A stretch of 64,000 nt of DNA from Escherichia coli (GTDB lineage Bacteria; Pseudomonadota; Gammaproteobacteria; Enterobacterales; Enterobacteriaceae), in the NCBI RefSeq assembly GCF_003334385.1, contig NZ_QOWN01000018.1. One strand, written 5' to 3'. Below, one piece after another: positions 10,929 to 32,757 of the stretch. The notes under the pieces were generated by a model. The model was not told the origin of the DNA and searched no databases. It saw only the letters and a program-made list of their open reading frames with translations. Numbering within the stretch: position 1 is the stretch's first letter; the number at the start of each line of letters is the position of its first letter. Position numbers and translations under genes: made by a program.

Positions 10929-12351
10929 TTTGCCCCGGCTGGCGAGCGCGGTGCTGCCACTGTGTTCGCAACATCCCGGTCAGTGTGGCCTTTTTCCTCT
11001 GGAGAAAAGTCTGGATGCGTTTGCCGCCCGGTATCGTCTGGCCGAAATGGCAGAGCATACGCTCGATGTTCAGTATTACATCTGGCAGGACGATATGTCG
11101 GGTCGGTTACTGTTTTCCGCCCTGTTAGCCGCAGCAAAGCGTGGCGTTCGCGTCCGTTTGTTGCTGGACGACAACAATACGCCCGGACTTGACGACATTT
11201 TACGCTTGCTTGACAGTCATCCACGCATTGAAGTCCGGCTTTTTAATCCTTTCTCGTTTCGCTTGCTGCGTCCGCTTGGTTATATCACCGACTTTTCCCG
11301 TCTTAATCGCCGTATGCACAATAAAAGTTTCACTGTCGATGGCGTGGTGACCCTGGTGGGAGGACGAAATATTGGTGATGCCTATTTTGGAGCAGGGGAG
11401 GAGCCACTTTTTTCGGATTTAGATGTCATGGCAATAGGACCCGTGGTAGAGGACGTTGCCGATGATTTCGCCCGCTACTGGTATTGCAAATCGGTTTCAC
11501 CCTTACAGCAGGTGCTGGATGTCCCGGAGGGTGAAATGGCGGATCGCATCGAGTTACCCGCCTCCTGGCATAACGATGCCATGACGCATCGTTATTTACG
11601 CAAAATGGAATCCAGTCCATTTATAAATCATCTGGTTGATGGAACATTGCCGCTTATCTGGGCGAAGACACGTTTATTAAGTGATGATCCGGCGAAAGGG
11701 GAGGGCAAGGCAAAACGGCATTCACTGTTACCGCAGCGCCTGTTCGATATCATGGGCTCACCCAGTGAACGCATCGATATTATCTCTTCCTATTTTGTAC
11801 CGACACGCGCAGGTGTGGCGCAACTCTTACGGATGGTGAGAAAAGGGGTAAAGATTGCGATCCTAACCAATTCTCTTGCCGCTAACGATGTTGCTGTCGT
11901 CCATGCCGGATACGCGCGCTGGCGCAAAAAATTGCTCCGCTATGGCGTGGAATTATATGAACTCAAGCCGACGCGTGAACAAAGTAGTACGTTACACGAT
12001 CGCGGCATAACCGGTAATTCCGGAGCCAGCCTGCATGCTAAAACCTTTAGCATCGATGGTAAAACGGTGTTTATCGGCTCTTTCAATTTCGATCCGCGTT
12101 CAACATTGCTCAATACTGAAATGGGCTTCGTGATAGAGAGCGAAACGCTGGCACAGTTAATTGATAAACGCTTTATTCAGAGCCAGTATGATGCGGCCTG
12201 GCAGCTCCGTCTGGACAGGTGGGGACGGATCAACTGGGTTGATCGTCATGCAAAGAAAGAGATTATTCTCAAAAAAGAACCCGCCACCAGTTTCTGGAAG
12301 CGGGTTATGGTCAGACTGGCGTCGATATTGCCCGTGGAATGGTTATTGTAA
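10921..12351 (+). CDS. clsC: cardiolipin synthase C (phospholipase D family); start may instead be the TTG at 10930
   Basis: Two HKD motifs ([18 protein letters not shown]); overlaps ymdB stop (ATGAATGA). Confidence 0.88.
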
Positions 12352-18838: not shown

Positions 18839-19887
18839 TCAGTTCGATACCTGGGGTATTCGACGACGACGTAGACTGTTCCATGAATAGACTGCGTTGA
18901 ATAACACTACGCCAGCGGTGACGAGAAATACCGCTCTGAAACCGTAGTTCGCTGAAATCGCTGCTCCCATCAATGGTCCGGTAACGTTGCCAATATCACG
19001 AAACGATTGGTTATAGCTGAAGATACGCCCGGCGATCTGGTTGCTCGAGTTGTAAACCAACAGTGTCTGTACGGCGGGGAGTAGTGCACCATCGGCGGCA
19101 CCGAGCAAAAAACGTAAAATCCCAAGTTGCAATGGCGTCTGAACGTAAGACATTGGGATCAACAGCAGTACAGAAAAGATCAGCGCTGTAATCAGGATCT
19201 TTTCGGGTCCGATTCGATCGCCAAGTTTGCCGAGTCGTGGTGCACTTAGCAGAGCCGCCACGCCTGGCACCGAGGCGATCATGCCACTGATAAAGGCGAC
19301 GTTACTGACGTTACCCGCCAGTTCGCGGACATACAGCGTCAGAATGGGGGCAATTGAGCCCGTCGCCACCTGGATGATTAACGTAGTGACAAACAGGCTG
19401 AGTACCAGTTTCGGGTTTTTAAGTGATGTCACCACTTCCCGCATGTGCAGCATCTCTTTTTTGCTGACCGGCTGGAATTTTTCTCTGATGCAAAACAGGG
19501 TGACGAAAAAGCAGAGTATGAGCACACTGGCGGTAATAAAGAATACCGGACGTAAGCCGTAGCTATCGGCGAGCAGGCCGCCAGCCATTGGGCCGAGCAA
19601 CGCACCACTAACGCCGCCTGTGGAGAGCGTACCCAGCGCCCAGCCGCTTTTATTACGCGGTACTTGTGTGGCGATAAGAGCATTAGCGTTGGGGACAAAT
19701 CCGCCAAGTAACCCAAGAAGCGCCCGCAGGATCAAAAACTGCCAGATATTTTGTGCCAGCCCCATCAACACCATCACGATGCCCATGCCGAGGGCAGAGC
19801 GTAATAGCATGAGTTTTCGGCCTTTACGGTCGGCGAGTCCACCCCAAAACGGTGAGGCGATGGCCGAAAATAAAAATGTAATGCTGA
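18839..19887 (-). pseudogene. mdtG: mdtG 3' fragment (C-terminal about 350 codons of MFS efflux transporter MdtG), separated from its 5' end by the inserted element
   Basis: Reading frame of the 323-aa ORF continues upstream without an ATG to 19887, where MdtG-like sequence (..[17 protein letters not shown]..) is interrupted. Confidence 0.85.
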
Positions 19888-20289
19888 TATTTGTTCCCTA
19901 AATACACCATGAGAACATACCTGTTAATAACAGGACAATATCAGGTGAATGATTATGCAATTCAACGGTGTTTTTCCAAGTATCTAAGCAGTTTTACACA
20001 GATTCTATGCAGTATCGGTATAGTCTCTTTTTAGCATAACTTATTGATATCTATAAAGAATCTGTGAAGTCTCTTTTCAGGGTAAACTGTATCGTGTTAG
20101 TCGTCCCTCTCTCGACTCCTAGAAAAGTGCTATATACAGGGCTATATAACGATATATAGATAGTTGGTCACATGGTGTAACTATCAAGAAACTTAACGAT
20201 TTCCTACGTGAAAGTTAGAAAGTGATGGTTATAGTTACCCTCCTAAAATCTTCATAGCTCCTTCATAACCAGTCTTAAAAGGACTTCCT

Positions 20290-20404
20290 TATGAGACACT
20301 TTCAACGTAACGGTAGAATGCACCTTCCAAGTGTCTCATAAGCTTGTTTTTGAATTATGAGACAGCTAAACTTATGAGACCAACTTTTGAGACTTCTTAG
20401 GGGG
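20290..20404. promoter_or_regulatory. res-like cluster of resolvase-type half-sites (TGTCTCATA, matching TGTCYNNTA) overlapping the promoter of the small serine recombinase gene
   Basis: TATGAGACA at 20290-20298 and inverted TGTCTCATA at 20332-20340; further direct copies at 20357-20365, 20373-20381 and partial at 20387-20394, ending just 5' of the RBS/ATG at 20409. Confidence 0.55.
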
Positions 20405-20408
20405 ATGT

Positions 20409-20957
20409 ATGGCGGTGATTGGTTATTGCAGGGTATCAACACAAGACCAGACTGTAGACAACCAGAAACTACAGATAGAGAAGGTTCACAAGGTCGATAA
20501 ATGGTTTATTGATGAGGCTGTCTCAGGAGCTACAAAGGCCACCAGCAGAGATGGTTTTAGAGACATGATGAACTATGTAAGGTGTGACGATACGTTAGTT
20601 GTGGTAGCTATTGACCGTTTAGGGCGTAATACCGTTGATGTGCTCTCTAACGTGGAGGCACTACAGACTAAAGGTGTGAGGGTTGTTTCTCTACGTGAAG
20701 GTTTCGACTTATTAACACCAATCGGTAGAGCAATGCTTACTATGATGGCTGGTTTAGCTGACCTTGAAAAAGACCTTATCAGTGAACGTAGAAAGGCTGG
20801 TATTGAACGTGCTAAAGCTGAAGGGGTTCACATGGGGAGACCTGTAAAAGCTTCTTCAGAGACTGTAAAGATGCTTATCTCACAAGGTAAAACGAGGTTG
20901 CAGATTCAGGAAGAGCTAGGAATCTCTAGAGCAACTTATTACAGACTTGCTAAATAA
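20409..20957 (+). CDS. small serine recombinase (resolvase/DNA-invertase family) with C-terminal HTH
   Basis: 182 aa; N-terminal catalytic motif VIGYCRVSTQDQ (active-site Ser), resolvase core, C-terminal HTH LGISRATYYRLAK; RBS GGGGGA upstream. Confidence 0.85.
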   Translation: MAVIGYCRVSTQDQTVDNQKLQIEKVHKVDKWFIDEAVSGATKATSRDGFRDMMNYVRCDDTLVVVAIDRLGRNTVDVLSNVEALQTKGVRVVSLREGFDLLTPIGRAMLTMMAGLADLEKDLISERRKAGIERAKAEGVHMGRPVKASSETVKMLISQGKTRLQIQEELGISRATYYRLAK

Positions 20958-21300
20958 GTTACTGAATAGTTACATGGATGTAGCTGATATTTGGCTTTTT
21001 TGCAAAGGGGGTCACATAGCTGGTGTGACGGGTACTTAGCAGGTATAGACCTGTGATAGATATTTTCGAAGATTCGGGGAAGATGAGATTCAAAGAGGGC
21101 TAGTCATTTTTTATAAAAATTTTCAGAATCTGAAAAGTTACTGTACAGAATATATACAGACATCTTTAAAGTATCTGTAAAGACTTTTAAGATAAAAGAT
21201 AGATATCCAGAAAGGATATCCGTTTAGAAAGACTGTTAAGTATCTCTTAAAAGAGAGTAAACCTTGTCAATAGTGATTGCAATAAAAATTTTTATTTCTT

Positions 21301-21963
21301 ATGTCAATTGAGCATATTTTAATCGGGAAGCATCATGGGGGTTCTGATTACTGGAGAACTCCATTTTTGTTATTTAAGAATCTAAACTGTGAATATATTT
21401 TCACGCTGGATGGTGCTGCAACTAAGCACGATACGTTATTACCCCGCTTTACGGATGATATTCACAATCAATCGTGGATTGGCGAAAGGGTGTTCTGTAA
21501 CCCGCCGTACAGCGATATTCCGTCGTTCCTCATAAAAGCGTCTGAGGCAGATTTAGCGGTATTCCTGATACCGTATAGAGCCAACACCAGCTACTGGCTT
21601 AGGCACATTTACAGCAATAACCACTGTCATGAAATCCGTATTCTTCATCGTGCAGTTAAATACCTTCCACCAGCAGGCCATAACGGGCTTACTATTCGTT
21701 CACCGTTTCCAAGTGCAGTCATTGTTTTTAAAAAAGAACCACGCAGGCATGAAATTACGCAGATGATTTGCTGTGCTGATACATTGCTACCGTTAACCAT
21801 CATTAACAGAGGAGGCTTAAGAGGAAGACCCACCATTTACCCACCTGAGACGCTCGACAGCTTCATAAAACTATACAGGCAAGGAAAACCCATTAAGTGC
21901 ATTGCAGATGCTCTCAGAATGCCTCTGAGCACGTCATACAGGATTGCGCAAAGGTTGAGCTAA
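21301..21963 (+). CDS. phage-type DNA N6-adenine methyltransferase (Dam/T1-like family) with C-terminal HTH-like extension; orphan (no cognate nuclease recognised)
   Basis: 220 aa; motifs DYWRTP, FTLDGAA and catalytic CNPPYS (NPPY), ...FPSAVIVF; extra C-terminal approx 70 aa with HTH-like segment. Confidence 0.75.
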   Translation: MSIEHILIGKHHGGSDYWRTPFLLFKNLNCEYIFTLDGAATKHDTLLPRFTDDIHNQSWIGERVFCNPPYSDIPSFLIKASEADLAVFLIPYRANTSYWLRHIYSNNHCHEIRILHRAVKYLPPAGHNGLTIRSPFPSAVIVFKKEPRRHEITQMICCADTLLPLTIINRGGLRGRPTIYPPETLDSFIKLYRQGKPIKCIADALRMPLSTSYRIAQRLS

Positions 21964-22325
21964 AATTCTCATAAATATGGTCATTTACAAGACAGGTGAT
22001 TCAGATATTAAGAAGTATCCCTGTGAACAATAAATGACCAATCAGTAATTATTCTGTGAAATAATTGTTGCAATTTATAATCACATCTGTTATAGTTTCT
22101 ATATGGGCTGATAAAAAAGTTCATGTCTTGAAGTGGTAACACTTGGGGAGGTGTCAGATGGTTGGCGTATAAAACCTCTCATTCATGGTATACCTCAGCG
22201 TTTTAATCATCGTACTGTTTCAGGCATGGACTTCTTTATCAGTCCATCAATCCCCCAGATATTTTAATCACACAGGCTAATCGGTTTTATCCGGTTGGCC
22301 TTTTCACATATGAGGTATTTTATGA

Positions 22326-23294
22326 ATGAAAAAAGAAACTAATGCTTTTATTATGGTAGATAAACGAGTTGCACAATTCCCTAAAACATTAAAGCCAATT
22401 GACCGCTTGGTATATTTCACTATGCTGGATGGTGCTGATTATTACGAATCTAAGTTCGGGAGATATGCACCAAGTATTGACTATTTGATGGTTATGTCTG
22501 GTGCTACACGTAATACAGTTATTGACTCTCTGAAAAGACTTGAGTCACACAGGCTTATTGAGAAGACCAATATCAAAGGGCAGCAAAGTATTTTTAAAGT
22601 ATTCACGTTAGATGAGCGTCCAGAAGTCTTATCAGAACCTACCCTTGATGAGCGTCGTAGAGTCAAATTATCAGGTCAACCAGAATCTGACACTAACCCA
22701 ACCAAAAATTGGTTACCTACCCAACCAGAATTTGGTTACCTACCTAACCAGAAATTGGTTACATGTAATACTGAATATAAAGACAAAAATATAAAAACTA
22801 AAGAAGAAAGACTAAAAGGGAACTTTGAAGAAGAATCTCTTAAGAAGGGAGCTTCGCTCTGTGATTCACATGAATGTGATATTAAAGAAGATGACTTTCT
22901 TTCTTTGGATGAATTAAATGATTTTCTCTCTATGAATGAATCTGACCTTGATAGTGAAGCTACTAAAGAGGTCGTTAAAAAGGAAGATAAAATCTCTGAT
23001 GTGATTGCTAGTAGTGACCATAAAAACACACAGTGCCCCGCCACTGATGATGAGATGGACCCCTTCGATGATGATGAAGAGGATGAAGAGTCAGAACGTG
23101 AAAAAGCCATTAAGAGGGTAGAGAAGAAAAAGAGATTCGAGCTTGCAAGACAAAAGAACAAAGTATCGGGTTTAGACCCATTCGATGACAGTGAAGATGA
23201 TTATTATCTTTCACCGAGAAAGAAACAAACCCAGGATGACAAGAAGCAAAAAATTAAACCGAAGATGTATTTTGCTGGTGGAGGTATGCGCTAA
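22326..23294 (+). CDS. putative replication initiator (winged-helix N-terminal domain, acidic C-terminal tail) with origin-like iterons embedded in its coding sequence
   Basis: 322 aa; N-terminal winged-helix-like region; internal DNA iterons plus AT-rich tract resembling the lambda O/ori arrangement; C-terminus very rich in D/E. Confidence 0.55.
   Translation: MKKETNAFIMVDKRVAQFPKTLKPIDRLVYFTMLDGADYYESKFGRYAPSIDYLMVMSGATRNTVIDSLKRLESHRLIEKTNIKGQQSIFKVFTLDERPEVLSEPTLDERRRVKLSGQPESDTNPTKNWLPTQPEFGYLPNQKLVTCNTEYKDKNIKTKEERLKGNFEEESLKKGASLCDSHECDIKEDDFLSLDELNDFLSMNESDLDSEATKEVVKKEDKISDVIASSDHKNTQCPATDDEMDPFDDDEEDEESEREKAIKRVEKKKRFELARQKNKVSGLDPFDDSEDDYYLSPRKKQTQDDKKQKIKPKMYFAGGGMR
22676..22820. 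repeat. Origin-like iteron array (3-4 direct repeats of about 23 bp, each containing the palindrome AACCARAAWTTGGTT) followed by an AT-rich tract
   Basis: AACCCAACCAAAAATTGGTTACCTAC / CCAACCAGAATTTGGTTACCTAC / CTAACCAGAAATTGGTTACATG at 22695-22765, partial unit at 22677-22693, then AT-rich 22766-22820. Confidence 0.65.
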
Positions 23295-23584
23295 TGAGAG
23301 AATATAACGGTGAAAAACGATACAAAGATTATCTATTAAGGCGCTACAGCATTTCTCGTGAAGGTCATCTTCTGAAAGATACTCATGGGGAGGTTTACCG
23401 GATTCGACCGAAGAAGGAAGGAAAGAATTATTTCTTTTTTGATGGTGTGACAGATTTAAAGATTGACGCTTTGAGGTTTGCAGTGCTGTATCATTATGAT
23501 ATCTGGGATTCGGTCCACCAGCTACGATTAAAAGACGGTGACCCCGGTAATCTGAGGGCCACCAATATCATCACAAAACGTTAG
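23294..23584 (+). CDS. small protein, possibly degenerate HNH/NUMOD-like; function unknown
   Basis: 96 aa; start overlaps stop of upstream gene (TAATG); C-terminal segment LRLKDGDPGNLRATN loosely resembles HNH_3-type motifs. Confidence 0.4.
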   Translation: MREYNGEKRYKDYLLRRYSISREGHLLKDTHGEVYRIRPKKEGKNYFFFDGVTDLKIDALRFAVLYHYDIWDSVHQLRLKDGDPGNLRATNIITKR

Positions 23585-23903
23585 TTTGTTTTACCATCAT
23601 CAATCGTAATTGTGATTTCATATTTGAAAAGCTTAATGCTGAAATTGAATCGTGTACTTTTGGCGATAATCATTTTTAAAAGCTGATACACCAGAAGCAC
23701 CAGAAACACAAAGCAACCTAAGCTTGCGAATCTGTGAGATTCAGCAATTGTTTCAAGAAAGCCCATTAATTCCCCTTATTTATCAAAGGGAATGACCTGT
23801 ATCAGCCCCTATAACCATAATATCATGTAAATGAGATGTTGACAATATGTTAAATAAATGTTAAGATTGTAGTATGAGTAAGAGATTTAAGGAGATTTTT
23901 ACA

Positions 23904-24194
23904 ATGACTCACACAGTTACGCGCCTTTTGCCAGAGGCATTTGAACGACTGGCAGCAATCAAAGCCAAATACCCTGATATGAAGCACACGGCGCTTGTTG
24001 GAGAGCTTTTAAAAGAGTCGGTAGCCCTGACCCCTTTCGATAACGTTAAGGGCGTTGCAGAGGGTTCTAAGGCCATCAGAATCACAACAGGCCAACTGGA
24101 ACTACTCAAAGCGCAGTCCGCAGTAGCAGGTTGCTCAATGATTCAGGTGTTAAGCACTAAGGTTCATCAACTGGCGGATAAATTGGAGGTTTAA
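23904..24194 (+). CDS. hypothetical protein, possible ribbon-helix-helix DNA-binding regulator
   Basis: ORF track 23874..24194; the internal ATG at 23904 is preceded by RBS AAGGAG; predicted beta-strand/helix pattern (TVTRLLPEAFERLAAIKAK). Confidence 0.45.
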   Translation: MTHTVTRLLPEAFERLAAIKAKYPDMKHTALVGELLKESVALTPFDNVKGVAEGSKAIRITTGQLELLKAQSAVAGCSMIQVLSTKVHQLADKLEV

Positions 24195-24580
24195 TGTATG
24201 ACTTTTATAAACATCGTGACCATTTGGTAAGATTTGACGGTAGAGTCTGGAAAGACATAACAGAAACCAATAAACCCAAGTTTACCCACCAGCAATTAGC
24301 CTCAAGATTTGATATCTGGACTGAAGCACAAAAAGATAATGGTGATTTCGAGTTTATCAGGGGTTTTGATTATGCTTACGAAGATGACCTTAAAGACGCC
24401 ATTAAATTAATTGAAAATTTTAATGGAAATAATTCTGGTGACAAACACAAAGCCAATGGTAATCGGTATGACAGGGAGTTAATTCTTGATGCCATTTCCA
24501 GAGGTCAATCACAAAGTTATATTTCTGAGAAATACGGCTTATCACGTAGTCAATACTACAAGATTAAAGCGTCTGTGTAA
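24194..24580 (+). CDS. hypothetical protein with C-terminal HTH (regulator or terminase-small-subunit-like)
   Basis: 128 aa; start coupled to upstream stop (TTAATG) with RBS GGAGG; C-terminal HTH ISEKYGLSRSQYYKIKA. Confidence 0.5.
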   Translation: MYDFYKHRDHLVRFDGRVWKDITETNKPKFTHQQLASRFDIWTEAQKDNGDFEFIRGFDYAYEDDLKDAIKLIENFNGNNSGDKHKANGNRYDRELILDAISRGQSQSYISEKYGLSRSQYYKIKASV

Positions 24581-24717
24581 GCCTGTGAGAATGAGTGAGA
24601 CTCAAAGATGAGCTACCCTATTACTAAGGTGTCTCACTCCCTCTGTAACCCGCATGGTTACTGGCCTCAGAATGGCTATTTTGGCAGATTTAAGATGTGT
24701 TTTAGAGGAATTTAAAA

Positions 24718-25041
24718 ATGAACAACTTCCCATTACAAATTTTCGTTGATAACGACACCGCTCTGATGATTCAGGCTTTCACTGATTCCGGTGTATCAAT
24801 TGACTTTGACAGGCTGTTAGAGTTGATGGCTGATAATGCAGAAAACATCTCTGACTTTATTCAGTCGGTGGAGTTTAACGAGCCTCGAATGATGCTACCA
24901 ATTAAAGACAGCAACATGAAAAGATTGGTTATCGAGCAAACGAACAAATACAGCGTTAGCCCTGAAAGATATCTCAAGGCAGCTATAGCAATTTTGTGCG
25001 CTGACAATATTTTGGTGACGGATTCGAAGGTGGTGCATTAA
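24718..25041 (+). CDS. hypothetical protein
   Basis: 107-aa ORF with RBS AGAGGA; no recognisable motif. Confidence 0.45.
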   Translation: MNNFPLQIFVDNDTALMIQAFTDSGVSIDFDRLLELMADNAENISDFIQSVEFNEPRMMLPIKDSNMKRLVIEQTNKYSVSPERYLKAAIAILCADNILVTDSKVVH

Positions 25042-25118
25042 TGGGCTTAATAATTGCTTGGACAGCTTTGGGTTTATTTGTTGGTTGCTGGGTAGGTAAC
25101 ACAGTAAATAAGAATTGA
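25041..25118 (+). CDS. candidate small hydrophobic peptide (25 aa, single predicted TM helix), translationally coupled to upstream ORF
   Basis: ATG overlaps upstream TAA (TAATGG); encodes MGLIIAWTALGLFVGCWVGNTVNKN; below the size cut-off of the ORF track. Confidence 0.3.
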   Translation: MGLIIAWTALGLFVGCWVGNTVNKN

Positions 25119-25535
25119 TGTTGCCAATCTGTTAAAAAGCTGTTGACAAATAACCTTAAGCATGACATAATTTTAATTATGGGAGAGTAATTCTCTCTTA
25201 TATTTCTTTCAATAATCCGATGGATGGATGGATATTCTGAGTTGGTGAGGTATGTTCTATACCGAACATTCTGAAAGGTGCAATGCTTTTCGCTACATGA
25301 CCTCTTATATAACCTGAGAGGTCATCTCGAAAAGTACTCTTGTTCATTCGTTATTGAATCCTTTAGATGTTTTAATTTCTTCACCTTATGAATAGCCCTT
25401 TATAAGAAATTATCTAGGGCTATTCAGTTTTTAAAAAGCATACTTGGCAAACCGCCTTTTAAGTCTCTTCTAAGTTCGTAGGCTGTCAGGTGTGCTTTTT
25501 AAAAACTGAATATACTTAGAAGAGGAAATGAAATA

Positions 25536-26246
25536 ATGGCAAATGACATTTATATTAGTGGAAGAAAAATTGATAGCTTCGGTGACTGGTCGCCACAGAC
25601 TGAACATCCAGCTATCGTTATTCAGCGTAAAGAACACGATGCGAGAATTGAGCTTGAGCAAGAGCTAAAGATGTCACCAAAGCAAATTACCTTTGTGTCT
25701 CCTGAGCCTCAAGAGATGCCTGATGTATGCAAGAGTGAAGCATTGCTTGAGCTTGAAAAGAAATATTTCCCAGCTTTAAAAGCACAGCGTCTTAGATTAG
25801 ATGACGCTTACAGCAAAGTTACCCTGATGCAATCAGCTATTGAACCGTCAGAATTTGAGATTCAGGATGAATTGTCACAGAAACCATTTGTTTATTACCA
25901 ATATGCAGACAATGATGGTTTTGGTACTTTTCCTGAGAATATCCCAGACGCGATTAGTAGTCTTCCTGATGGATATCGAATTGTGAAGATGGTTAAAGCT
26001 TCAAGGGGTGCTGGTCAATTTATTTATATGACCAATAAGAGCGATGAAGAACTCGCTGAACTTGCTAGACAGAACATCTTGGCATCACGTAACAAGCAGC
26101 TTGATAGTGCTAAGTTGTATCTCTCAAGAGAGCTTCAGGCTATGAAAGAGCTTGTTAGTGAATATGAGTCGCAGAAGAAGATTGCTATGCAAGCTGATAT
26201 TGAGCAGTTAGTGAAGATTTCTCAGAAGTATAGTAAAGCACTTTAA
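25536..26246 (+). CDS. hypothetical protein with C-terminal coiled-coil
   Basis: 236-aa ORF with RBS GAGGAAA; no recognisable catalytic motif. Confidence 0.5.
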   Translation: MANDIYISGRKIDSFGDWSPQTEHPAIVIQRKEHDARIELEQELKMSPKQITFVSPEPQEMPDVCKSEALLELEKKYFPALKAQRLRLDDAYSKVTLMQSAIEPSEFEIQDELSQKPFVYYQYADNDGFGTFPENIPDAISSLPDGYRIVKMVKASRGAGQFIYMTNKSDEELAELARQNILASRNKQLDSAKLYLSRELQAMKELVSEYESQKKIAMQADIEQLVKISQKYSKAL

Positions 26247-26270
26247 TTATGAATTAAGAAGAGGTGATTA

Positions 26271-26480
26271 ATGTTTGAAGAACGTTTAGAGACTATTCGG
26301 TCTGTTTGTGAAAACTTAAAGTTACAAACCAAGCCAGCCTTAAGAATTAAAACCAAACATCAAATTATCACCTCACACAAACCAAAAACACGCAAGATTC
26401 CAAAGTGGTGTATTGACCGTATTCCTTCTGATGCTCAAATCATAGGTGAAACGGAATTACATTATCTTGTCCGACATTAA
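26271..26480 (+). CDS. hypothetical small basic protein
   Basis: 69-aa ORF with RBS GAGGTG. Confidence 0.4.
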   Translation: MFEERLETIRSVCENLKLQTKPALRIKTKHQIITSHKPKTRKIPKWCIDRIPSDAQIIGETELHYLVRH

Positions 26481-26577
26481 AAATTGGTTGGGTAAAATCA
26501 ACGGGAGAGATTATCGAGTGACATCGGTAGTTTCTCCTTTTTTTGTATATGAACACTTAAGAGGTGAAAAAATATGA

Positions 26578-28749
26578 ATGGCACAGTTTAAAGTTGATGA
26601 TTTTCTGATTGAGCTAGGTTTTAACTCTCAGAGGGTTTTAAAAGGTCTGGAAAAAGCCGAGAAACAAACGATGCAGGTAGCATCACGAATTGAGAAGCGA
26701 TTGAATAAAGCTTTTAAAGTTAACCCTACGCCTTTAAATGATTCTCTCAAGGTCATGGAAAGAAATGTCGATAAAACTGTTTCCAAGATTGAGCAGCGTC
26801 TTAAAAACACTAAAGCGTTTAAGATTAAAACGGAAATTGAGGATACTTTAAAGCCACTTAAACAACCGAGACAGCCACGAATTAGCGGCAACAGAGCAAT
26901 CACAGCAGCACATAGTGTGAATATGTCTAAGCTTGGTGATATTAATCCGCTGATGGCTAAAATGTTTAAAGCACAGTATTACAGCTTAAGCGGTAAGGCT
27001 GGTAATATTGGAAGTGAAAAGTTTAACGCTGAACTTGCAAAATTAAATCAATCTCTTCGTGAAACGTTGAATAAACTCAGGTCACAGACAAAGACCGCCA
27101 GCATCAGCAAAGTAAATGATTCCTTTAATAATCTTGCAAGCAATGCAATTAAGTTATCTGGTGCATTTTACTCTGTGATGGGTGCTCTTAACGCTTACAA
27201 GGCCATTATGAATGCAGGTCTTAAACGAGATTCCGCACAGAGAGCCGCTAAGTTTGTACTTGGTGATAAAGCATCTGAAGCTGAAACATTTATCAGGGGA
27301 CTGGCTGACAAGACAGGTCTTAATATCTCTGAAGGACTATCAAGCTACGCTAAGTTTGCAGCAGGTGCTCAGGGTTCTATGTCACAGGAACAGACACAGG
27401 AGCTATTTGGTAATGCAACGGCTATGAGCCGTTTAATGGGGCTTTCTAACGATGAACTAAACGGCATTTTGAAAGCTTTTGAGCAGATGGCTTCTAAGGG
27501 CAAGATTCAGGCTGAAGAATTACGTGGGCAGTTAGGTGACCGTATGGCTGGTGCATTTAAGCTATTCGCTGAAGCATTGGGTATGACTGCTACAGAGCTT
27601 GATGCAGCCATGAAAAACGGGAAGGTACTTTCCGCTGATACTCTCCCTAAAGTCGCTAAACAGATGGGCTTGATGATTGATAAAGCGGGTGGCTGGGCTG
27701 AAGTCGCTAAGAGCACCCAGACAGCTTTAGGTAAGTTAGCAAACAACTGGGATGATACGATGGTTAAAATCTTCTCAGGTTCACAGGATGAGTTAAACGG
27801 CTTCTTATCCAGCCTGGGTAGCCTGCTTAGTGAAATGGGGATGAGTTCTTCTATCGCTGGTGATGCTATCGGTGGACTTATCGACATGCTTAAAGCTGGT
27901 GTAGATGATATTCGCGTATTCAATAACACCATTGAAGGCTGGATTTTACAGGTTAAAAAGTTCTATTACAGCCTTGATGACACTAAACGAAAACTACTTG
28001 ATGAAGTCGGTGATGGTTTTATCAATTTTGTCAAAGGTCTTGCTATAGCGTTATCTGCAAAGACGCTATTCAGTGCCACTACAGGGGTGATGAACCTGAC
28101 AAGAGCAATCACAACGTTAGGTACAAGAGCTAATCAGGTGGCTGGTCAGGTAACTACTGGTAAAGGTGGTGGAAAACTGAAAGGTGTAGCTGGTGGTGTA
28201 GGTAGTGCTCTTGCAATTGGTTATGCTGATGACGGTTATGAAACAGCGTTAGCATTAGCTTCAATGATTCCACAAATCAGAGGTGTCACCCTTGGTTTAT
28301 ATGCATTGAAGAAAGCACTGGATTTTATGAATCAGGAAGTAGTCAAAAACGCTAATATGCATCCATCTGGGGTAGGTGTGGGTAGTGACTTTAATCCTGT
28401 GTATTCTGGTGACCCTAATAAACCGAATATGATTAACGAAGGATGGAGTAAAATTTTTAATTCAATGGGTGAATTGTTTAACAATGCCACAATGAATATT
28501 GCAAGATTCAATCATCCAGAATTAAACAACATTAAGCAAGATTCAGCATTAACGAGTGCAGATATTCAGAGTCTGAGGGATGAAATTAGTGCTTTGAGTA
28601 AACGTATTCAGGAGCCTGTGAAAGTTTCACTTGGTGGTGAAGTTGCCATTAAACCAGATGAAACCAGCTTTATGACCTTTAGCAGTAATATCTACGACCA
28701 ATATGCAGAAGCTACGCTATTAAGTTCATCATTCCCAGAAGATGATTGA
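26578..28749 (+). CDS. phage tail tape-measure-like protein
   Basis: 723 aa; coiled-coil N-terminal part; segment AEELRGQLGDRMAGAFKLFAEALGMTATELDAAMKNGKVLSADTLPKVAKQM resembles the conserved tape-measure N-terminal domain; Gly-rich middle. Confidence 0.65.
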   Translation: MAQFKVDDFLIELGFNSQRVLKGLEKAEKQTMQVASRIEKRLNKAFKVNPTPLNDSLKVMERNVDKTVSKIEQRLKNTKAFKIKTEIEDTLKPLKQPRQPRISGNRAITAAHSVNMSKLGDINPLMAKMFKAQYYSLSGKAGNIGSEKFNAELAKLNQSLRETLNKLRSQTKTASISKVNDSFNNLASNAIKLSGAFYSVMGALNAYKAIMNAGLKRDSAQRAAKFVLGDKASEAETFIRGLADKTGLNISEGLSSYAKFAAGAQGSMSQEQTQELFGNATAMSRLMGLSNDELNGILKAFEQMASKGKIQAEELRGQLGDRMAGAFKLFAEALGMTATELDAAMKNGKVLSADTLPKVAKQMGLMIDKAGGWAEVAKSTQTALGKLANNWDDTMVKIFSGSQDELNGFLSSLGSLLSEMGMSSSIAGDAIGGLIDMLKAGVDDIRVFNNTIEGWILQVKKFYYSLDDTKRKLLDEVGDGFINFVKGLAIALSAKTLFSATTGVMNLTRAITTLGTRANQVAGQVTTGKGGGKLKGVAGGVGSALAIGYADDGYETALALASMIPQIRGVTLGLYALKKALDFMNQEVVKNANMHPSGVGVGSDFNPVYSGDPNKPNMINEGWSKIFNSMGELFNNATMNIARFNHPELNNIKQDSALTSADIQSLRDEISALSKRIQEPVKVSLGGEVAIKPDETSFMTFSSNIYDQYAEATLLSSSFPEDD

Positions 28750-28905
28750 TTTAACGGTGTTCTACGTGAATAAAGCAAAGTTAATACCCGCACTAAAAAT
28801 TATTTTTTACGTAGCACACGCTTAACAGAGAAAATACTTATATATCAAAGGCTTGGTTAAAAATGATTAAAATACACTAAGCCTTTGAAATCAAAGGAGA
28901 ATTTA

Positions 28906-29694
28906 ATGATTTACTCTAATCAACTTCGTTACAGTGGCAAAGATGGTGTTTACTTCCATCTACAAGGCCAACCAGATAATTTCTTGTCACTATCAGCAAC
29001 AGAGAACATGGAATTTGACAGCCCTATGATGGTGACCACTCAAAATATGCAATCAGGGCAGACTGTAACAGATAATGTAATGCGTTCACCCAGAACTATT
29101 TCAATCAGTGGTGTGGTTGTAGTTGGTGAATCCGGTAGTATCCTCATCTCAAGAGATAATAAGCTGGTGGAAAACTTCATCGACACTCTTGAAAGCTGGC
29201 GTGACCAGAAGCAAATTATTTCGGTCATCTGTAAAGACGGAATTAAAATTGATGATTCTATTATTACGAGTTTTAAAGCCTCTAAAGATGTTGGTATTTC
29301 AAATGGTCTAAGAGTCCAGCTAACTTTTCAGGAAATTAACTTTAAAGCAATTGTAGGGCAAACTGATGTTTCAGCAGCTACTGGCAAAGCTGCCACCACG
29401 AATGACGGTGGTGTGACCAGTAAGAAGAATGCAGGTAACGTGACCACTGAACGCAATAACGCGCCTATGCTATCGTGCAAAGAGTTAATGAATATTAGCG
29501 ATGTATCCGGTTACGTTCCGGCTATCAGAAATGATATTCTCGATGCTCAGATTAAGTGCAATAAAGCTTGGAAGCTGGACTATTCAGACTTAACAGAAGC
29601 TGAAAAAACCAACGTCACCAATGCTAATAGTAACGCTGGTCGAGTAGCTTCAAAGCTTAAAAAGTACTCAGTGAATCCTAATAAGAGATACTAA
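28906..29694 (+). CDS. hypothetical protein downstream of tape-measure gene (possible tail-associated protein)
   Basis: ORF track 28885..29694; ATG at 28906 preceded by RBS AAAGGAGA; gene order after the tape-measure gene. Confidence 0.45.
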
Positions 29695-31220
29695 ATCTCT
29701 ACTACATCAACATCTATTAAACCCCTCTCAGTGACTTCAGAAAGCGACTGTATAGCCTCTGTAACGTTGTCTGAGGGGTTTTCTGTTATAGGTAGGTCAA
29801 TTACCTTGCCGTTGTGAAAAGTCACTTTACAGCGACGTTTAGCGGCATCTATAACTATTTCTTTGAGTACGCCCTTGATAAGTAGCTGTGTCTCTATCAT
29901 CCCTTCCTTTGTTGTCCTGTCAATATCTTTGAGGCTTCCAGTTGTGATGGCCTTTATCCGCTGTGTTTCCTCTTCGATATCATGATTGAGTTTTGATAGC
30001 GCATTCTTCATATCACGTAATTTCTCTGTGATAATTGTCATGTCATCGAGTTCAATAGCGAGTTCTGCCATTTTTGAGATTTTACGCTGCAAATCTTCAC
30101 GCTGTAATTTAAGGCTATCAATAGTGTCAGTATTTTCAGTTTCAAAACGGTCGCATAATGCGAGCATGTAGAGAATAGTTGCATCCGTTTGCTTACGACT
30201 GATAGCCTTTGCACTACACCTGTTAGCTGAACGATTAGGGCATCTGTACATCCCAAAACGTTTTAAGGCATATCCACCAAGAACAATAGTAGCCCCACAC
30301 TCAGAACATTTGATGATACCCCTGAACAAGTTGACTGATAGCGGATTACTTGATACAGAAGCCCTACCATATTGCCCTGTGTTCAGTTGCTGTACTCGAT
30401 AGAATAGTGACTCACTGATTATTGCGGGGTAGTAACCCTGAACTTCTTCACGTCCAGCAGGTGTGAAACATCCAATCACAGCACGATTTCTGAGTAGTTT
30501 CTTTACAGCAGTATCAGACCACCCCTTTTGTTTGGGTGTGTATTGATTCAATGACAAGTGGCCTTCATCGTTTAAAGTTCTGGTGATAGCCCAAAAGCTT
30601 AAACCCTGTAATCTCAGGTCAAATGCTCGTTTAACAACTTCCACTTTATCGGGGATGATAGTGAATGTTCGACGGTCATCATTCAGCCTTAACCATGCAG
30701 GACAACGCCTAGATACCTTGATACCTTCGGAGATGAGTTCTTTTTTACGGTTCCATGCAGCTTGGACACGCTCAGACTTCCTCAGACTTTCCTCATGCGC
30801 CCGCTGCATTATCAGAATGCTTTTAATCAGGGATAACGGGTCTTTTAAACTTTCTCGTGTGTAATGTTCACCATCGGACAGGGTGACTACATCTACACCA
30901 GCCCTTAAGATACGGCGTAATAGCTCAGAAGCAATATCAATATCCTGACGTGACAGACGGTCTAAACTCTCGATTAGTAGCGTATCACCAGCTTTAACAA
31001 GCCCTTTCTCGATAGCGGTTAGAAAGTCACCTAGACCACCTTTCAGGTGCTTACCACTAAAAGCACTTTTCCCCAAATCTTTAAAGCTCAAGGATGAATC
31101 CAAGTAAAACTCAGGGTTCTTATCAAGCCAGTCAGTAACCAGCTTAGATTGTCTGCGTACAGAGTCCCCTTTTAGTTGTCGTTCACTTGAAAATCTGATG
31201 TAGCTGATTGCCCGTCTCAT
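29691..31220 (-). CDS. large serine recombinase (serine integrase)
   Basis: About 510 aa; N-terminal resolvase-type catalytic domain ([12 protein letters not shown], active-site Ser), recombinase domain, zinc-ribbon-like Cys cluster (CSECGATIV...CPNRSANRC), C-terminal coiled-coil; first ATG at 31220, track start at 31226 is TTG. Confidence 0.88.
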
Positions 31221-31243
31221 ATTCAATACCTAAAATGATGTGT

Positions 31244-31441
31244 TTAGGAACCCATTATACTGAAGACAATACCGGACCACATATTCAGGGCGGAGTGACC
31301 GGTAACGCCAAGCTGCTCAACGTAGAGGGGTAAGAAGGGCATTACCAGACTGAAGGCGGCACCGGTAAGAAAACAGCCTAGCCAGGCGACGATCAGGTTT
31401 CGTTTCCAGTTTATAGGGGTGTCATTTTCACAGGGTGACAT
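31244..31441 (-). pseudogene. mdtG: mdtG 5' fragment (N-terminal 58 codons of MdtG fused to 7 element-derived codons before a stop)
   Basis: Starts [16 protein letters not shown]... as MdtG; sequence diverges at the junction near 31260. Confidence 0.85.
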
Positions 31442-31612
31442 AGCAATCCGCTGTTGGTGCGCCAGGCGCGGTGAACATAAGAAGAAAAGATAAGCACACT
31501 AATTATGCGCCCGACTTCCAGGGGGCGCAATCCAGAGAGCTTTTATCGCTAAATCAGGGGGATTTGCTGTGGTAATGCCGGATGCCATTCTGAAGCATCC
31601 GGCATGGGAGAT

Positions 31613-32533
31613 TTAATAGCGTGAAGGAACGCCTTCCGGGCGTGTTTTAAAGCGACGGTGTAACCACATATACTGCTCTGGTGCCATCATGATGCATTTT
31701 TCGACCACTTTGTTCATCCACGCGGCGGTAGTTTCGGCATCATCCAGTGGCGGAGAACACTCTGGCGGCAGCATAATCAATTGATACCCTTTGCCATCTG
31801 GCTTACGGCGTGGAACGAAGGGCACCAGACATGCGCCGGACATCCGTGCCAGCATCCAGGTTCCGGTCGTGGTCGCAGCCTGCTCAACGGCAAACAACGG
31901 GACGAAAACGCTTGAGCGCGGGCCGTAATCATGATCCGGTGCGTACCAGACCACTTCGCCTTTTTTCAGGGCTTTAATCATGCCTTTTAAATCTTTGCGG
32001 TCGAGCATCGATTTATTTGAGCGCAAACGGCCCCAGGTTTGTAGCCAGTCAATCAGTGGATTATCGTTCGGGCGATAAACGCCAATACCCGGTTCCTGCA
32101 TACCAAACTGCCGCGCACCCAGCTCCAGTGTCAGAAAATGGATGCCAACTAACAGGATGCCGCGTTTTTGCGCCTGCACGTCACGAATGTGTTCCATGCC
32201 GATCACTTCCGTCCAGCGGGCGATTCGGCGGTCCGGCCAGAACCACGCCATGCCGGTTTCCATCAGGCCCATGCCAACGGATTCGAAATTCTTCACCACC
32301 ATTTTACGGCGTTCTTGTTCGCTCATTTCCGGGAAGCACAGTTCCAGGTTGCGATGCACAATTTTTGCGCGTCGTTTCATAAAACGTAACGCCAGTTTTC
32401 CTAATCCACAACCGAGGCGGTAGATAACCGGGTAGGGCAATTGCACGACTAACCAAAGTACGCCAATACCCAACCAGGTTAACCAATAACGCGGATGAAG
32501 CAGTGCGGTGGAGAACTTGGGTAGATTCGTCAT
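31613..32533 (-). CDS. lpxL: lipid A biosynthesis lauroyl acyltransferase LpxL (HtrB)
   Basis: Start trimmed to [17 protein letters not shown] (306 aa). Confidence 0.93.
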
Positions 32534-32757
32534 ATCAATCCTGTTTTTCAACCTATTCGGGCAATTGTATGTATTGTCGCATTTTTTCGCCCGCAACCAA
32601 AATTTGTGGCTGAAGACTGGGCGAAATTGCCGCGCTTGTAAATAACAAATAATTTTTAATGCGCAAATGTAGCGTAAAATGTGTGGATGTTAATTATCGA
32701 TAATTGCTATATCATGCCGCGGATTTTTACTTTCCCATCTCGCAGGAACCGTACACC

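Follow-up and report, generated by a model that had tools for sequence, protein, structure and literature searches.

What separates the early genes from the tail genes of a phage-related island in the Escherichia coli chromosome? The question is raised by positions 25041-25535 of the 64,000-nucleotide stretch of contig NZ_QOWN01000018.1 that we analysed (the whole of which we call the window), where a 25-codon open reading frame (ORF) is followed by a long hairpin-rich segment. The original prediction for this locus compared the peptide to type I toxins and holins and suggested that the segment behind it could hold a small RNA, terminators, or a regulatory switch. The second of these suggestions has held up well. 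As far as sequence comparison can tell, terminators and a conserved promoter accompany a new structured RNA here, exactly at the junction of the early and tail modules of an island related to Felixounavirus myophages such as Bas63. We think it somewhat better than an even bet that the region acts as a transcription-termination gate of the lambda PR'-tR' kind, a function that we infer from the architecture of the predicted elements and from their conservation. The kind of device is known; its sequences, its structure, and the element that hosts it appear to be new.

Promoter, leader RNA and terminators

Our comparisons are based on 27 loci, namely, the window itself, 13 E. coli chromosomes that span the identity range, and 13 IMG/VR contigs that were retrieved with an invariant 20-mer of the RNA core (a related-locus search in IMG/VR gave the same contigs). 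At each locus a predicted sigma-70 promoter (Table 1) follows the peptide gene, whose stop codon lies 23 to 25 nucleotides (nt) before the -35 hexamer (24 in the window). The window promoter scores 11/12 plus TG, is the top match across the island, and is predicted to start transcription near position 25178. Promoter-like sites overall are not enriched in the region (7, versus 6.6 in shuffled sequences), and it is because this site is nearly invariant over the 27 loci that we consider it more than a chance match; the -35 does not vary, and the -10 is found in three variants, each with the extended TG. The surrounding 60-nt block (25113-25172) has a mean pairwise identity of 0.90-0.94, compared with 0.55-0.72 for the flanking genes, and is the peak within ±1 kb, a comparison that carries an ascertainment bias in that part of the loci were retrieved through this very region. 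In the promoter-like TTGACA...TAATTTTAAT of the original prediction, TTGACA is the -35 hexamer, and TAATTTTAAT overlaps the true -10 (CATAAT). Overlapping the promoter is an array of three TGTTR repeats, which is found at the equivalent position in 26 of the 27 loci. The island holds only one other TGTTR x3 array (23837-23863, over the early promoter), none arose in 300 shuffled sequences, and we regard the two as candidate operator arrays.

Structure prediction and covariance analysis had been proposed as checks on the original prediction, and both point to a structured RNA downstream of this promoter. The plus strand of 25176-25540 is predicted to fold with -120.6 kcal/mol, versus -77.7 +/- 5.5 for shuffled sequences (z = -7.7), and the minus strand gives z = -4.3. 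The plus strand is the more stably folded one in all 26 distinct leaders among the loci (on average, -123 versus -101 kcal/mol for the minus strand). The earlier statement that about 350 bp of this stretch lack an ORF is correct in effect: the mechanical ORFs that occur here (21 to 49 amino acids [aa]) include none that is constant in position or length over the 26 leaders, five of which have no ORF of >=25 aa.

Stem-loop SL1 is present in 14 sequence variants, every one of which forms 6-8 bp with frequent G-U pairs; the T-rich run after it is not conserved, so SL1 is not a conserved terminator. A variable AU-rich linker, of which there are three module types, connects SL1 to the invariant 20-mer. 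Within the core, an alternative invariant hairpin (GAAAGGU/GCUUUUC) also is predicted. Searching both strands of the window for occurrences of two core segments, GAAAGGTGCAAT and ATATTCTGAGTTGG, gives chance-level numbers only. The first hairpin of the original prediction (ATGACCTCT, 25297-25305, pairing with AGAGGTCAT, 25317-25325, and extendable to 11 bp) is the upper stem of SL3. An anchored pair table shows 12 SL3 sequence variants, each with 10-13 contiguous pairs; the lower stem is weaker, with one pair being C-A in 8/13 sequences. In the covariance-model alignment of SL3, 96.4% of the cells are paired, four pairs are changed on both sides, and the covariation score is reached by none of 500 shuffles (slid controls, 39-52% paired); this alignment is fitted to the model and so favours structure, and the independent anchored pair table agrees with it. 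We used these two approaches because RNAalifold on a MAFFT alignment misaligned SL3. A covariance model of the core plus SL3 yields one match per island locus (27/27, 40-98 bits) and none in phage Bas63 or elsewhere in the window, and an Rfam scan at E <= 1 returned noise only (best, 29.8 bits against a threshold of 90 and 29.2 bits against a threshold of 55). As an aside, a hairpin module of about 33 nt (GAGGATAGTCTTCTATCCGAAGTCTAT) is found in other islands directly after the promoter -10 (leaders L006, L019, and L023) or, at several loci, directly after T3 (see below); it is perhaps a small hairpin cassette that is shuffled or mobile.

Roughly 160-255 nt from the predicted start, all 26 distinct leaders carry one or two hairpins with a T-run that would serve as intrinsic terminators, of the types T1 (GCCCTAA..TTAGGGC+TTTCTTT) and/or T2 (AGCCCT..AGGGCT+T-run). 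The window has a single one, which is the second hairpin that was originally noticed, with coordinates one base off: (T)GAATAGCCCT (25389-25399) pairs with AGGGCTATTC(A) (25416-25426). A further terminator, T3, precedes the tape-measure protein (TMP) gene and is kept in 26/26 loci (-19 to -23 kcal/mol, with a T5-T8 tail); its stem starts with GGGAGAG, as does that of SL1. In three loci the T-run of T3 begins merely 29-30 nt before the TMP ATG. This leaves no room for a TMP promoter after T3, and TMP expression at these loci must therefore come from terminator read-through. No plus-strand terminator was found from the early promoter up to the studied region; with the early operon lacking its own terminator, the leader terminators would end early transcripts as well.

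RNA that reads through the leader terminators would contain a long hairpin, which is predicted in all 25 distinct post-terminator segments (25-30 bp, -29 to -42 kcal/mol) in three co-varying families and is more stable on the plus strand than on the minus strand in 25/26. Its apical loop carries an anti-Shine-Dalgarno (anti-SD) sequence directed at the start of the first tail-module gene. All three leader families retain a loop-to-SD complementarity of 9-15 nt, and where the whole loop was captured, the predicted loop-SD duplexes have -12 to -22 kcal/mol (z of -4 to -7). On geometric grounds, the long hairpin and the anti-SD pairing cannot coexist, as the nucleotides that link them are too few.

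Table 1. Predicted features of the studied region, its early operon, and the island, with positions in the window
Feature	Position	Strand	Description
Island	19811-31600 (~11.5 kb)		Between 5'-truncated mdtG (18839-19810) and lpxL (31613-32596)
Island genes, left part			In order: small serine invertase, Dam-type methyltransferase, replication-initiator-like helix-turn-helix protein, several small genes, studied region
Island genes, right part			In order: 236-aa protein, 69-aa protein, TMP, PHROG 3721 'baseplate' protein
Large serine recombinase gene	Last in left-to-right order	Opposite	
Early promoter	23837-23867	+	TTGACA-17-TAAGAT (TG); heads the operon that ends in the peptide gene; second TGTTR x3 array overlies it
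107-aa protein gene	24718-25041	+	Last large gene of the early operon, directly upstream of the peptide gene
25-aa hydrophobic peptide gene	25041-25118	+	Encodes MGLIIAWTALGLFVGCWVGNTVNKN; coupled via TAATG to the 107-aa gene
TGTTR x3 array	25119-25145		Repeats at 25119, 25130, and 25141 (11-bp spacing); peptide stop into -35
Sigma-70 promoter	25143-25171	+	TTGACA (25143-25148), 17-nt spacer, CATAAT (25166-25171), extended -10 TG
SL1 stem-loop	25181-25197	+	At the very 5' end of the predicted RNA
Conserved single-stranded/core segment	25232-25292	+	ATATTCTGAGTTGG, window-type extra hairpin (about 25246-25272), invariant GAAAGGTGCAATGCTTTTCG (25273-25292)
SL3	25285-25335	+	11-bp upper stem (25297-25307/25315-25325) atop lower stem GCTTTTCG/CGAAAAGT
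Intrinsic terminator	25389-25432	+	10-11-bp stem, 16-nt loop, G, TTTTT (25428-25432)
Long hairpin	Arms 25413-25449 and 25484-25520	+	Part of the leader in read-through RNA; 37-nt arms, 84% complementary
Anti-SD	25465-25475	+	CTCTTCTAAGT; in the long-hairpin apical loop; complementary over all 11 nt to 25514-25524
Translation initiation region	25514-25535	+	ACTTAGAAGAGGAAATGAAATA before ATG 25536; first tail-module gene
236-aa protein gene	25536-26246	+	First gene past the proposed gate
T3, strong intrinsic terminator	26503-26545	+	15-bp stem + T7; 33 nt before the TMP ATG (26578)

A proposed termination gate and comparable systems

A strong promoter, a conserved promoter-proximal RNA, serial terminators, and structural genes follow one another here in the order that suggests the logic of processive antitermination. 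As long as the cell is uninfected, the promoter would fire, and most of its transcripts, like those of the early operon, would end at the terminators; by default, the short RNA would be abundant and the tail genes silent. RNA polymerase would become resistant to termination upon a signal, for which the most plausible candidates are a helper phage of the Felix O1 type infecting the cell and derepression of the island; it would then read through T1/T2 and T3 and switch the tail genes on. Such a modification would most likely be loaded onto the polymerase at the promoter block itself or at the conserved core of the promoter-proximal RNA, and the agent might be the RNA (as with put), an island protein, or a factor of the helper phage. 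The long hairpin and the anti-SD presumably would add a layer of post-transcriptional control over the first gene.

Several points weigh against a gate of this kind. The transcription start, the efficiency of termination, and read-through are all predictions, and the counts given above are not independent, as the 27 loci are related and mosaic. We found no antiterminator, and the 107-aa protein encoded upstream has no similarity to the Q or N families. Inspection by eye of the initially transcribed region showed no conserved pause element of the -10-like type; AT-rich -10-like strings do follow the -10 in all three promoter variants, with the key final T not conserved. Nor did we find a convincing boxA or ops motif; sigma-54, ops, and boxA motifs, again compared by eye, are weak at best (boxA, 7/12). 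The terminators, with their long loops and interrupted U-tracts, may simply be leaky, in which case a special factor would be needless. Finally, the SD of the first tail-module gene is free, not sequestered, in the minimum-free-energy fold. Given this, and given that the two pairings cannot coexist, the predicted anti-SD is best described as a conditional element. In a separate line, we considered the T4-type late promoter motif TATAAATA and dropped it, as Bas63 has just three copies, none of them upstream of late genes.

The closest match among known systems is the lambdoid gate made up of PR', the 6S RNA or StxS, tR', and Q. As in that gate, a strong promoter sits directly before structural genes with a terminator shortly downstream, the default transcript would be short and terminated, further terminators inside the late operon would require read-through, and a putative regulatory gene lies directly upstream of the promoter. 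However, the island has neither sequence nor Rfam similarity to the lambdoid region, no conserved sigma-dependent pause element was seen in it by eye, and it encodes no Q-family protein (the predicted fold of the 107-aa protein is tandem ribbon-helix-helix [RHH]-like rather than Q-like). Moreover, unlike the lambdoid phages, the island lacks head and lysis genes and is kin to a virulent phage. The body of the island RNA is conserved and covarying, a feature that is not known for the lambdoid 6S RNA region.

With HK022 put, which does not form a broad family, and other processive-antitermination RNAs (nut and EAR), the island leader shares conserved promoter-proximal stem-loops followed by several intrinsic terminators, although its similarity to boxA is as weak as noted above. 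The CI RNA of P4 and the C4 antisense RNA of P1/P7 likewise are operon-leader RNAs of a satellite or phage that exert control via premature termination, but the island RNA has no match to Rfam C4 at E <= 1 and no internal seqA/seqC-like repeats complementary to its core. Type III toxin-antitoxin loci (ToxIN) also present a promoter, a noncoding RNA, a partial terminator, and a protein gene in series. The island RNA differs from these in having no tandem repeats of about 36 nt (its direct repeats are merely two-copy chance matches of 9-14 nt), and the protein encoded downstream has no match to ToxN/AbiQ or in PADLOC.

The peptide gene, the early operon and the host island

We conclude from its conservation that the 25-aa ORF is a real, selected, and translationally coupled gene for a single-helix membrane peptide. 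As originally described, it starts within the stop codon of the upstream gene, its ATG having one base in common with the TAA of the 107-aa gene. The case for the peptide had been made to depend on conservation in related elements, and the ORF is intact in 27/27 loci, with the TAATG overlap in every one; in these loci, an SD-like GAGG/AGGTGG that lies inside the upstream gene precedes the start. There are two peptide families, one of 25 aa with the pattern M[GTS]L[IV][IV][AL]WT.LGL..GC......N[KR]N and one of 21 aa (MELVIICFVL[IV]GMIAGASIKV). The 21 distinct nucleotide versions of the former give a pS of 0.49 and a pN of 0.15 (pN/pS, 0.31), and its replacements mainly exchange one hydrophobic residue for another. 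The predicted single transmembrane helix also withstood comparison, in that the best 17-aa Kyte-Doolittle window is 2.0-2.8, and hence transmembrane grade, in all variants. Neither exact peptide sequence was found among 15 billion predicted proteins, which suggests that the gene has never been called. Our reading is that the peptide is an early-expressed small membrane protein and not a toxin-antitoxin partner.

The protein of 107 aa encoded just upstream belongs to no family in Pfam, PHROG, NCBIfam, or PADLOC and has no sequence match in the PDB; it forms two subfamilies that are 27-30% identical to each other. An AlphaFold (AF2) model (pLDDT, 74) shows a beta-alpha-alpha arrangement occurring twice, and its best PDB fold matches are F-plasmid relaxosome chains of about 110 aa (probability, 0.97; TM, only 0.43, which is weak). 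The model is consistent with a putative tandem RHH-like DNA binder, and this protein is our candidate for the regulator of the TGTTR arrays. At the head of the operon, positions 23817-23876 contain two divergent promoters with a common -35 region, an arrangement that looks like the main genetic switch of the island. The rightward promoter (TTGACA-17-TAAGAT) ends 7 nt before ATG 23874, and the mRNA from which the 106-aa gene that begins there is translated may be leaderless. The leftward promoter is followed by a 61-aa ORF with a hydrophobic centre (23581-23766, minus strand).

On the other side of the proposed gate, the 236-aa protein has no match in Pfam, PHROG, NCBIfam, or PADLOC, and a tblastn search of phages also was negative. 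Its database name is "transposase," a label without family support. More than 3000 homologues are known, all in Escherichia, Shigella, or Salmonella, and among the islands its N terminus comes in two unrelated versions (MANDIYI.. and MIRNEHEM..).

The window as a whole is E. coli chromosome, several of its proteins being identical to E. coli database entries, and the island stands out by its G+C content (37-40%, versus about 50% for the chromosome). It was inserted at the 5' end of mdtG, beside lpxL. Relatives with the same gene order occupy sites in yecE, near wrbA/ymdF, and near yciI in other strains, and complete E. coli genomes show at least four integration sites in all. The leader region is matched in 478 of 5426 complete E. 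coli genomes (527 places), and the baseplate-like gene, used as an independent probe, is matched in 479 of 5426 (534 places; about 9%). Because these counts agree, we take the leader to be a constant part of the island, and in the genome matches it is always accompanied by the tail-gene module. Judging by protein-database names, the island also is carried by some Shigella, Salmonella, E. fergusonii, and E. marmotae. The cargo at its left end differs: the window has a Hin/Mpi-type DNA invertase (20409-20957), and other islands have an AP2/ERF-type transcription factor or unrelated genes.

The kinship of the island with Felixounavirus extends to coding and noncoding DNA. Its TMP is homologous to that of Bas63 (32% aa identity), and the gene after it is 66% identical to its Bas63 counterpart in aa and 83% in nucleotides. 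Upstream of the methyltransferase gene, the noncoding segment 21101-21141 is 83% identical to noncoding Bas63 71631-71671, and 21179-21240 is 87% identical, in reverse orientation, to Bas63 79780-79840, a match that contains the dyad AGATATC..GATATCT. These two segments may be a helper-responsive operator, an origin, or a mimic of a packaging site. The studied stretch itself gave no match in megablast and blastn searches of 50,697 phage records; with a 91-nt query at E <= 10, the only matches were to unrelated phages. Capsid and terminase genes are absent, and the virion genes are limited to those for the TMP and the baseplate-like protein. With a serine recombinase, a replication-initiator-like protein, an incomplete virion set, and homology to Felixounavirus DNA, the island resembles a Felixounavirus satellite, and we regard it as a candidate for a satellite or defence island of virulent phages of the Felix O1 type. 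It resembles the PLE of Vibrio cholerae and the PICMI satellites in size (about 11 kb), in its large serine recombinase and replication-initiator-like gene, in having no capsid or terminase genes, and in its sequence links to one virulent phage genus. Unlike these, it has a tape-measure gene and an adjacent baseplate-like gene. A literature search found no paper describing such an element, or one for Felixounavirus, and the island apparently is undescribed.

Other explanations and implications

The short RNA could instead be a stand-alone trans-acting small RNA (sRNA) of 160-255 nt that regulates host or helper-phage mRNAs, the terminators simply ending the sRNA and the early operon and the tail genes being switched on in some other way. 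The architecture is classical for such an RNA (strong promoter, 5' stem-loop, U-rich single strand, Rho-independent terminator), the T1/T2 hairpins with their U-tracts and the conserved U-rich single strand CAUUCAUUGAAUCCUUU upstream of them resemble those of Hfq-type sRNAs, and many E. coli islands are similar at the nucleotide level only in the promoter and core (window 25110-25365). There also is a precedent in StxS, an sRNA by-product of the PR'-tR' gate in Stx phages that is itself a regulator (PMC7547250). Nevertheless, we judge this explanation unlikely: the element is never found apart from the tail-gene module, the core has no extended complementarity to the helper-type phage Bas63 (BLAST gives only short same-sense matches of 11-17 nt), and the loci without room for a TMP promoter still need read-through from upstream. 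A trans-acting sRNA is, in any case, compatible with a termination gate, and both can hold. A more specific possibility is that the read-through leader is a device aimed at the helper phage, its anti-SD loop pairing with phage mRNA. Either phage TMP mRNA would titrate the anti-SD and free the SD of the island (a sensor), or the island RNA would block translation of the phage TMP so that the island TMP is used instead (a silencer). Positions 25465-25479 (CTCTTCTAAGTTCGT) are complementary at 15/15 positions to Bas63 11452-11466, a site that precedes the phage TMP start by 14 nt; this match (BLAST E, 0.03) exceeds the 11-nt match to the SD region of the island itself, and the target 15-mer is identical and in place in four Felixounavirus genomes (Bas63 and three others), which, however, are closely related. 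In addition, 25455-25476 is complementary at 20/22 positions to Bas63 79753-79774, at the start of a phage early transcript; the promoter of this transcript has a -35 region (GTTAAAAAAGTTGTTGACAAA) resembling that of the island promoter (local score of the match, 32, versus 18.9 +/- 2.6 for shuffles, with a maximum of 27). Yet these matches are short and were found post hoc. Because the initiation regions of the island are homologous to that of the phage TMP gene, an anti-SD that acts in cis would be complementary to the phage site by descent, and the match is perhaps inherited rather than functional. Furthermore, the anti-SD lies downstream of the terminators and would be made in read-through RNA only, and the 15-mer is limited to the window-type leader family, the other two families carrying different anti-SDs. 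On balance, we consider an RNA device of this sort quite improbable.

Two further explanations are less likely still. One, suggested by the original comparison with toxins and holins, is a type I toxin-antitoxin or holin-like module in which RNA from the noncoding stretch would restrain a membrane toxin. The peptide is indeed like type I toxins in size and hydrophobicity, a structured RNA gene adjoins its gene, and it shares with Ibs, ShoB, TisB, Fst, and other small membrane proteins a single hydrophobic helix (19-35 aa) with a short polar tail. Unlike the genes for these, however, it is coupled to an upstream gene, has neither a promoter of its own nor a structured leader that could inhibit translation, and is not met by a complementary RNA: there is no minus-strand promoter over the ORF, and the leader RNA is of one sense with the peptide mRNA, with which it is predicted to pair no better than shuffled sequences do (-48.6 versus -49.6 +/- 4.6 kcal/mol). 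A PADLOC search gave no match. As for a holin, the island contains no lysis cassette, the neighbours of the peptide gene being a putative DNA-binding protein gene and the noncoding region rather than endolysin or spanin genes; known holins also are much longer than 21-25 aa. We regard either version as extremely unlikely. It is only a little less remote that the conserved features matter mainly as DNA (as operators, an origin, or a packaging signal), with the RNA structures being incidental. The promoter block is conserved far past the needs of RNA polymerase and has a repeat array in common with the early promoter, the long inverted repeat is a possible binding site for a dimeric protein, and other parts of the island have noncoding sequence in common with the phage. 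Against this, G-U pairs are frequent and strand specific, in keeping with the better plus-strand fold of every leader, compensatory changes preserve the helices as the sequence changes, T-runs follow the hairpins on the plus strand only, and the stretch has no similarity to phage DNA longer than about 20 nt.

The stretch is the central control region of the island and so far has gone unannotated, the peptide being in no protein database and the RNA in no Rfam family. It supplies what, by sequence, is a very strong natural promoter, together with a covarying structured RNA, three serial terminators, and a candidate operator array, for which a putative tandem-RHH protein is the candidate regulator. 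Should the leader in fact pair with helper RNA, then either the tail genes of the island would be on only in the presence of helper late mRNA, or its 32%-identical TMP would be built into tails; were the core also to act like put without protein factors, this would be an RNA-only circuit for sensing and hijacking in a new satellite class of virulent coliphages. If the region is a termination gate, as we favour, it would show how an element related to Felix O1 silences and then activates tape-measure and baseplate-like genes, and it would add a satellite-like or defence-like class of element for a virulent coliphage. As Felixounaviruses are used against E. coli and Salmonella, such a gate also would have a bearing on the outcomes of phage therapy.

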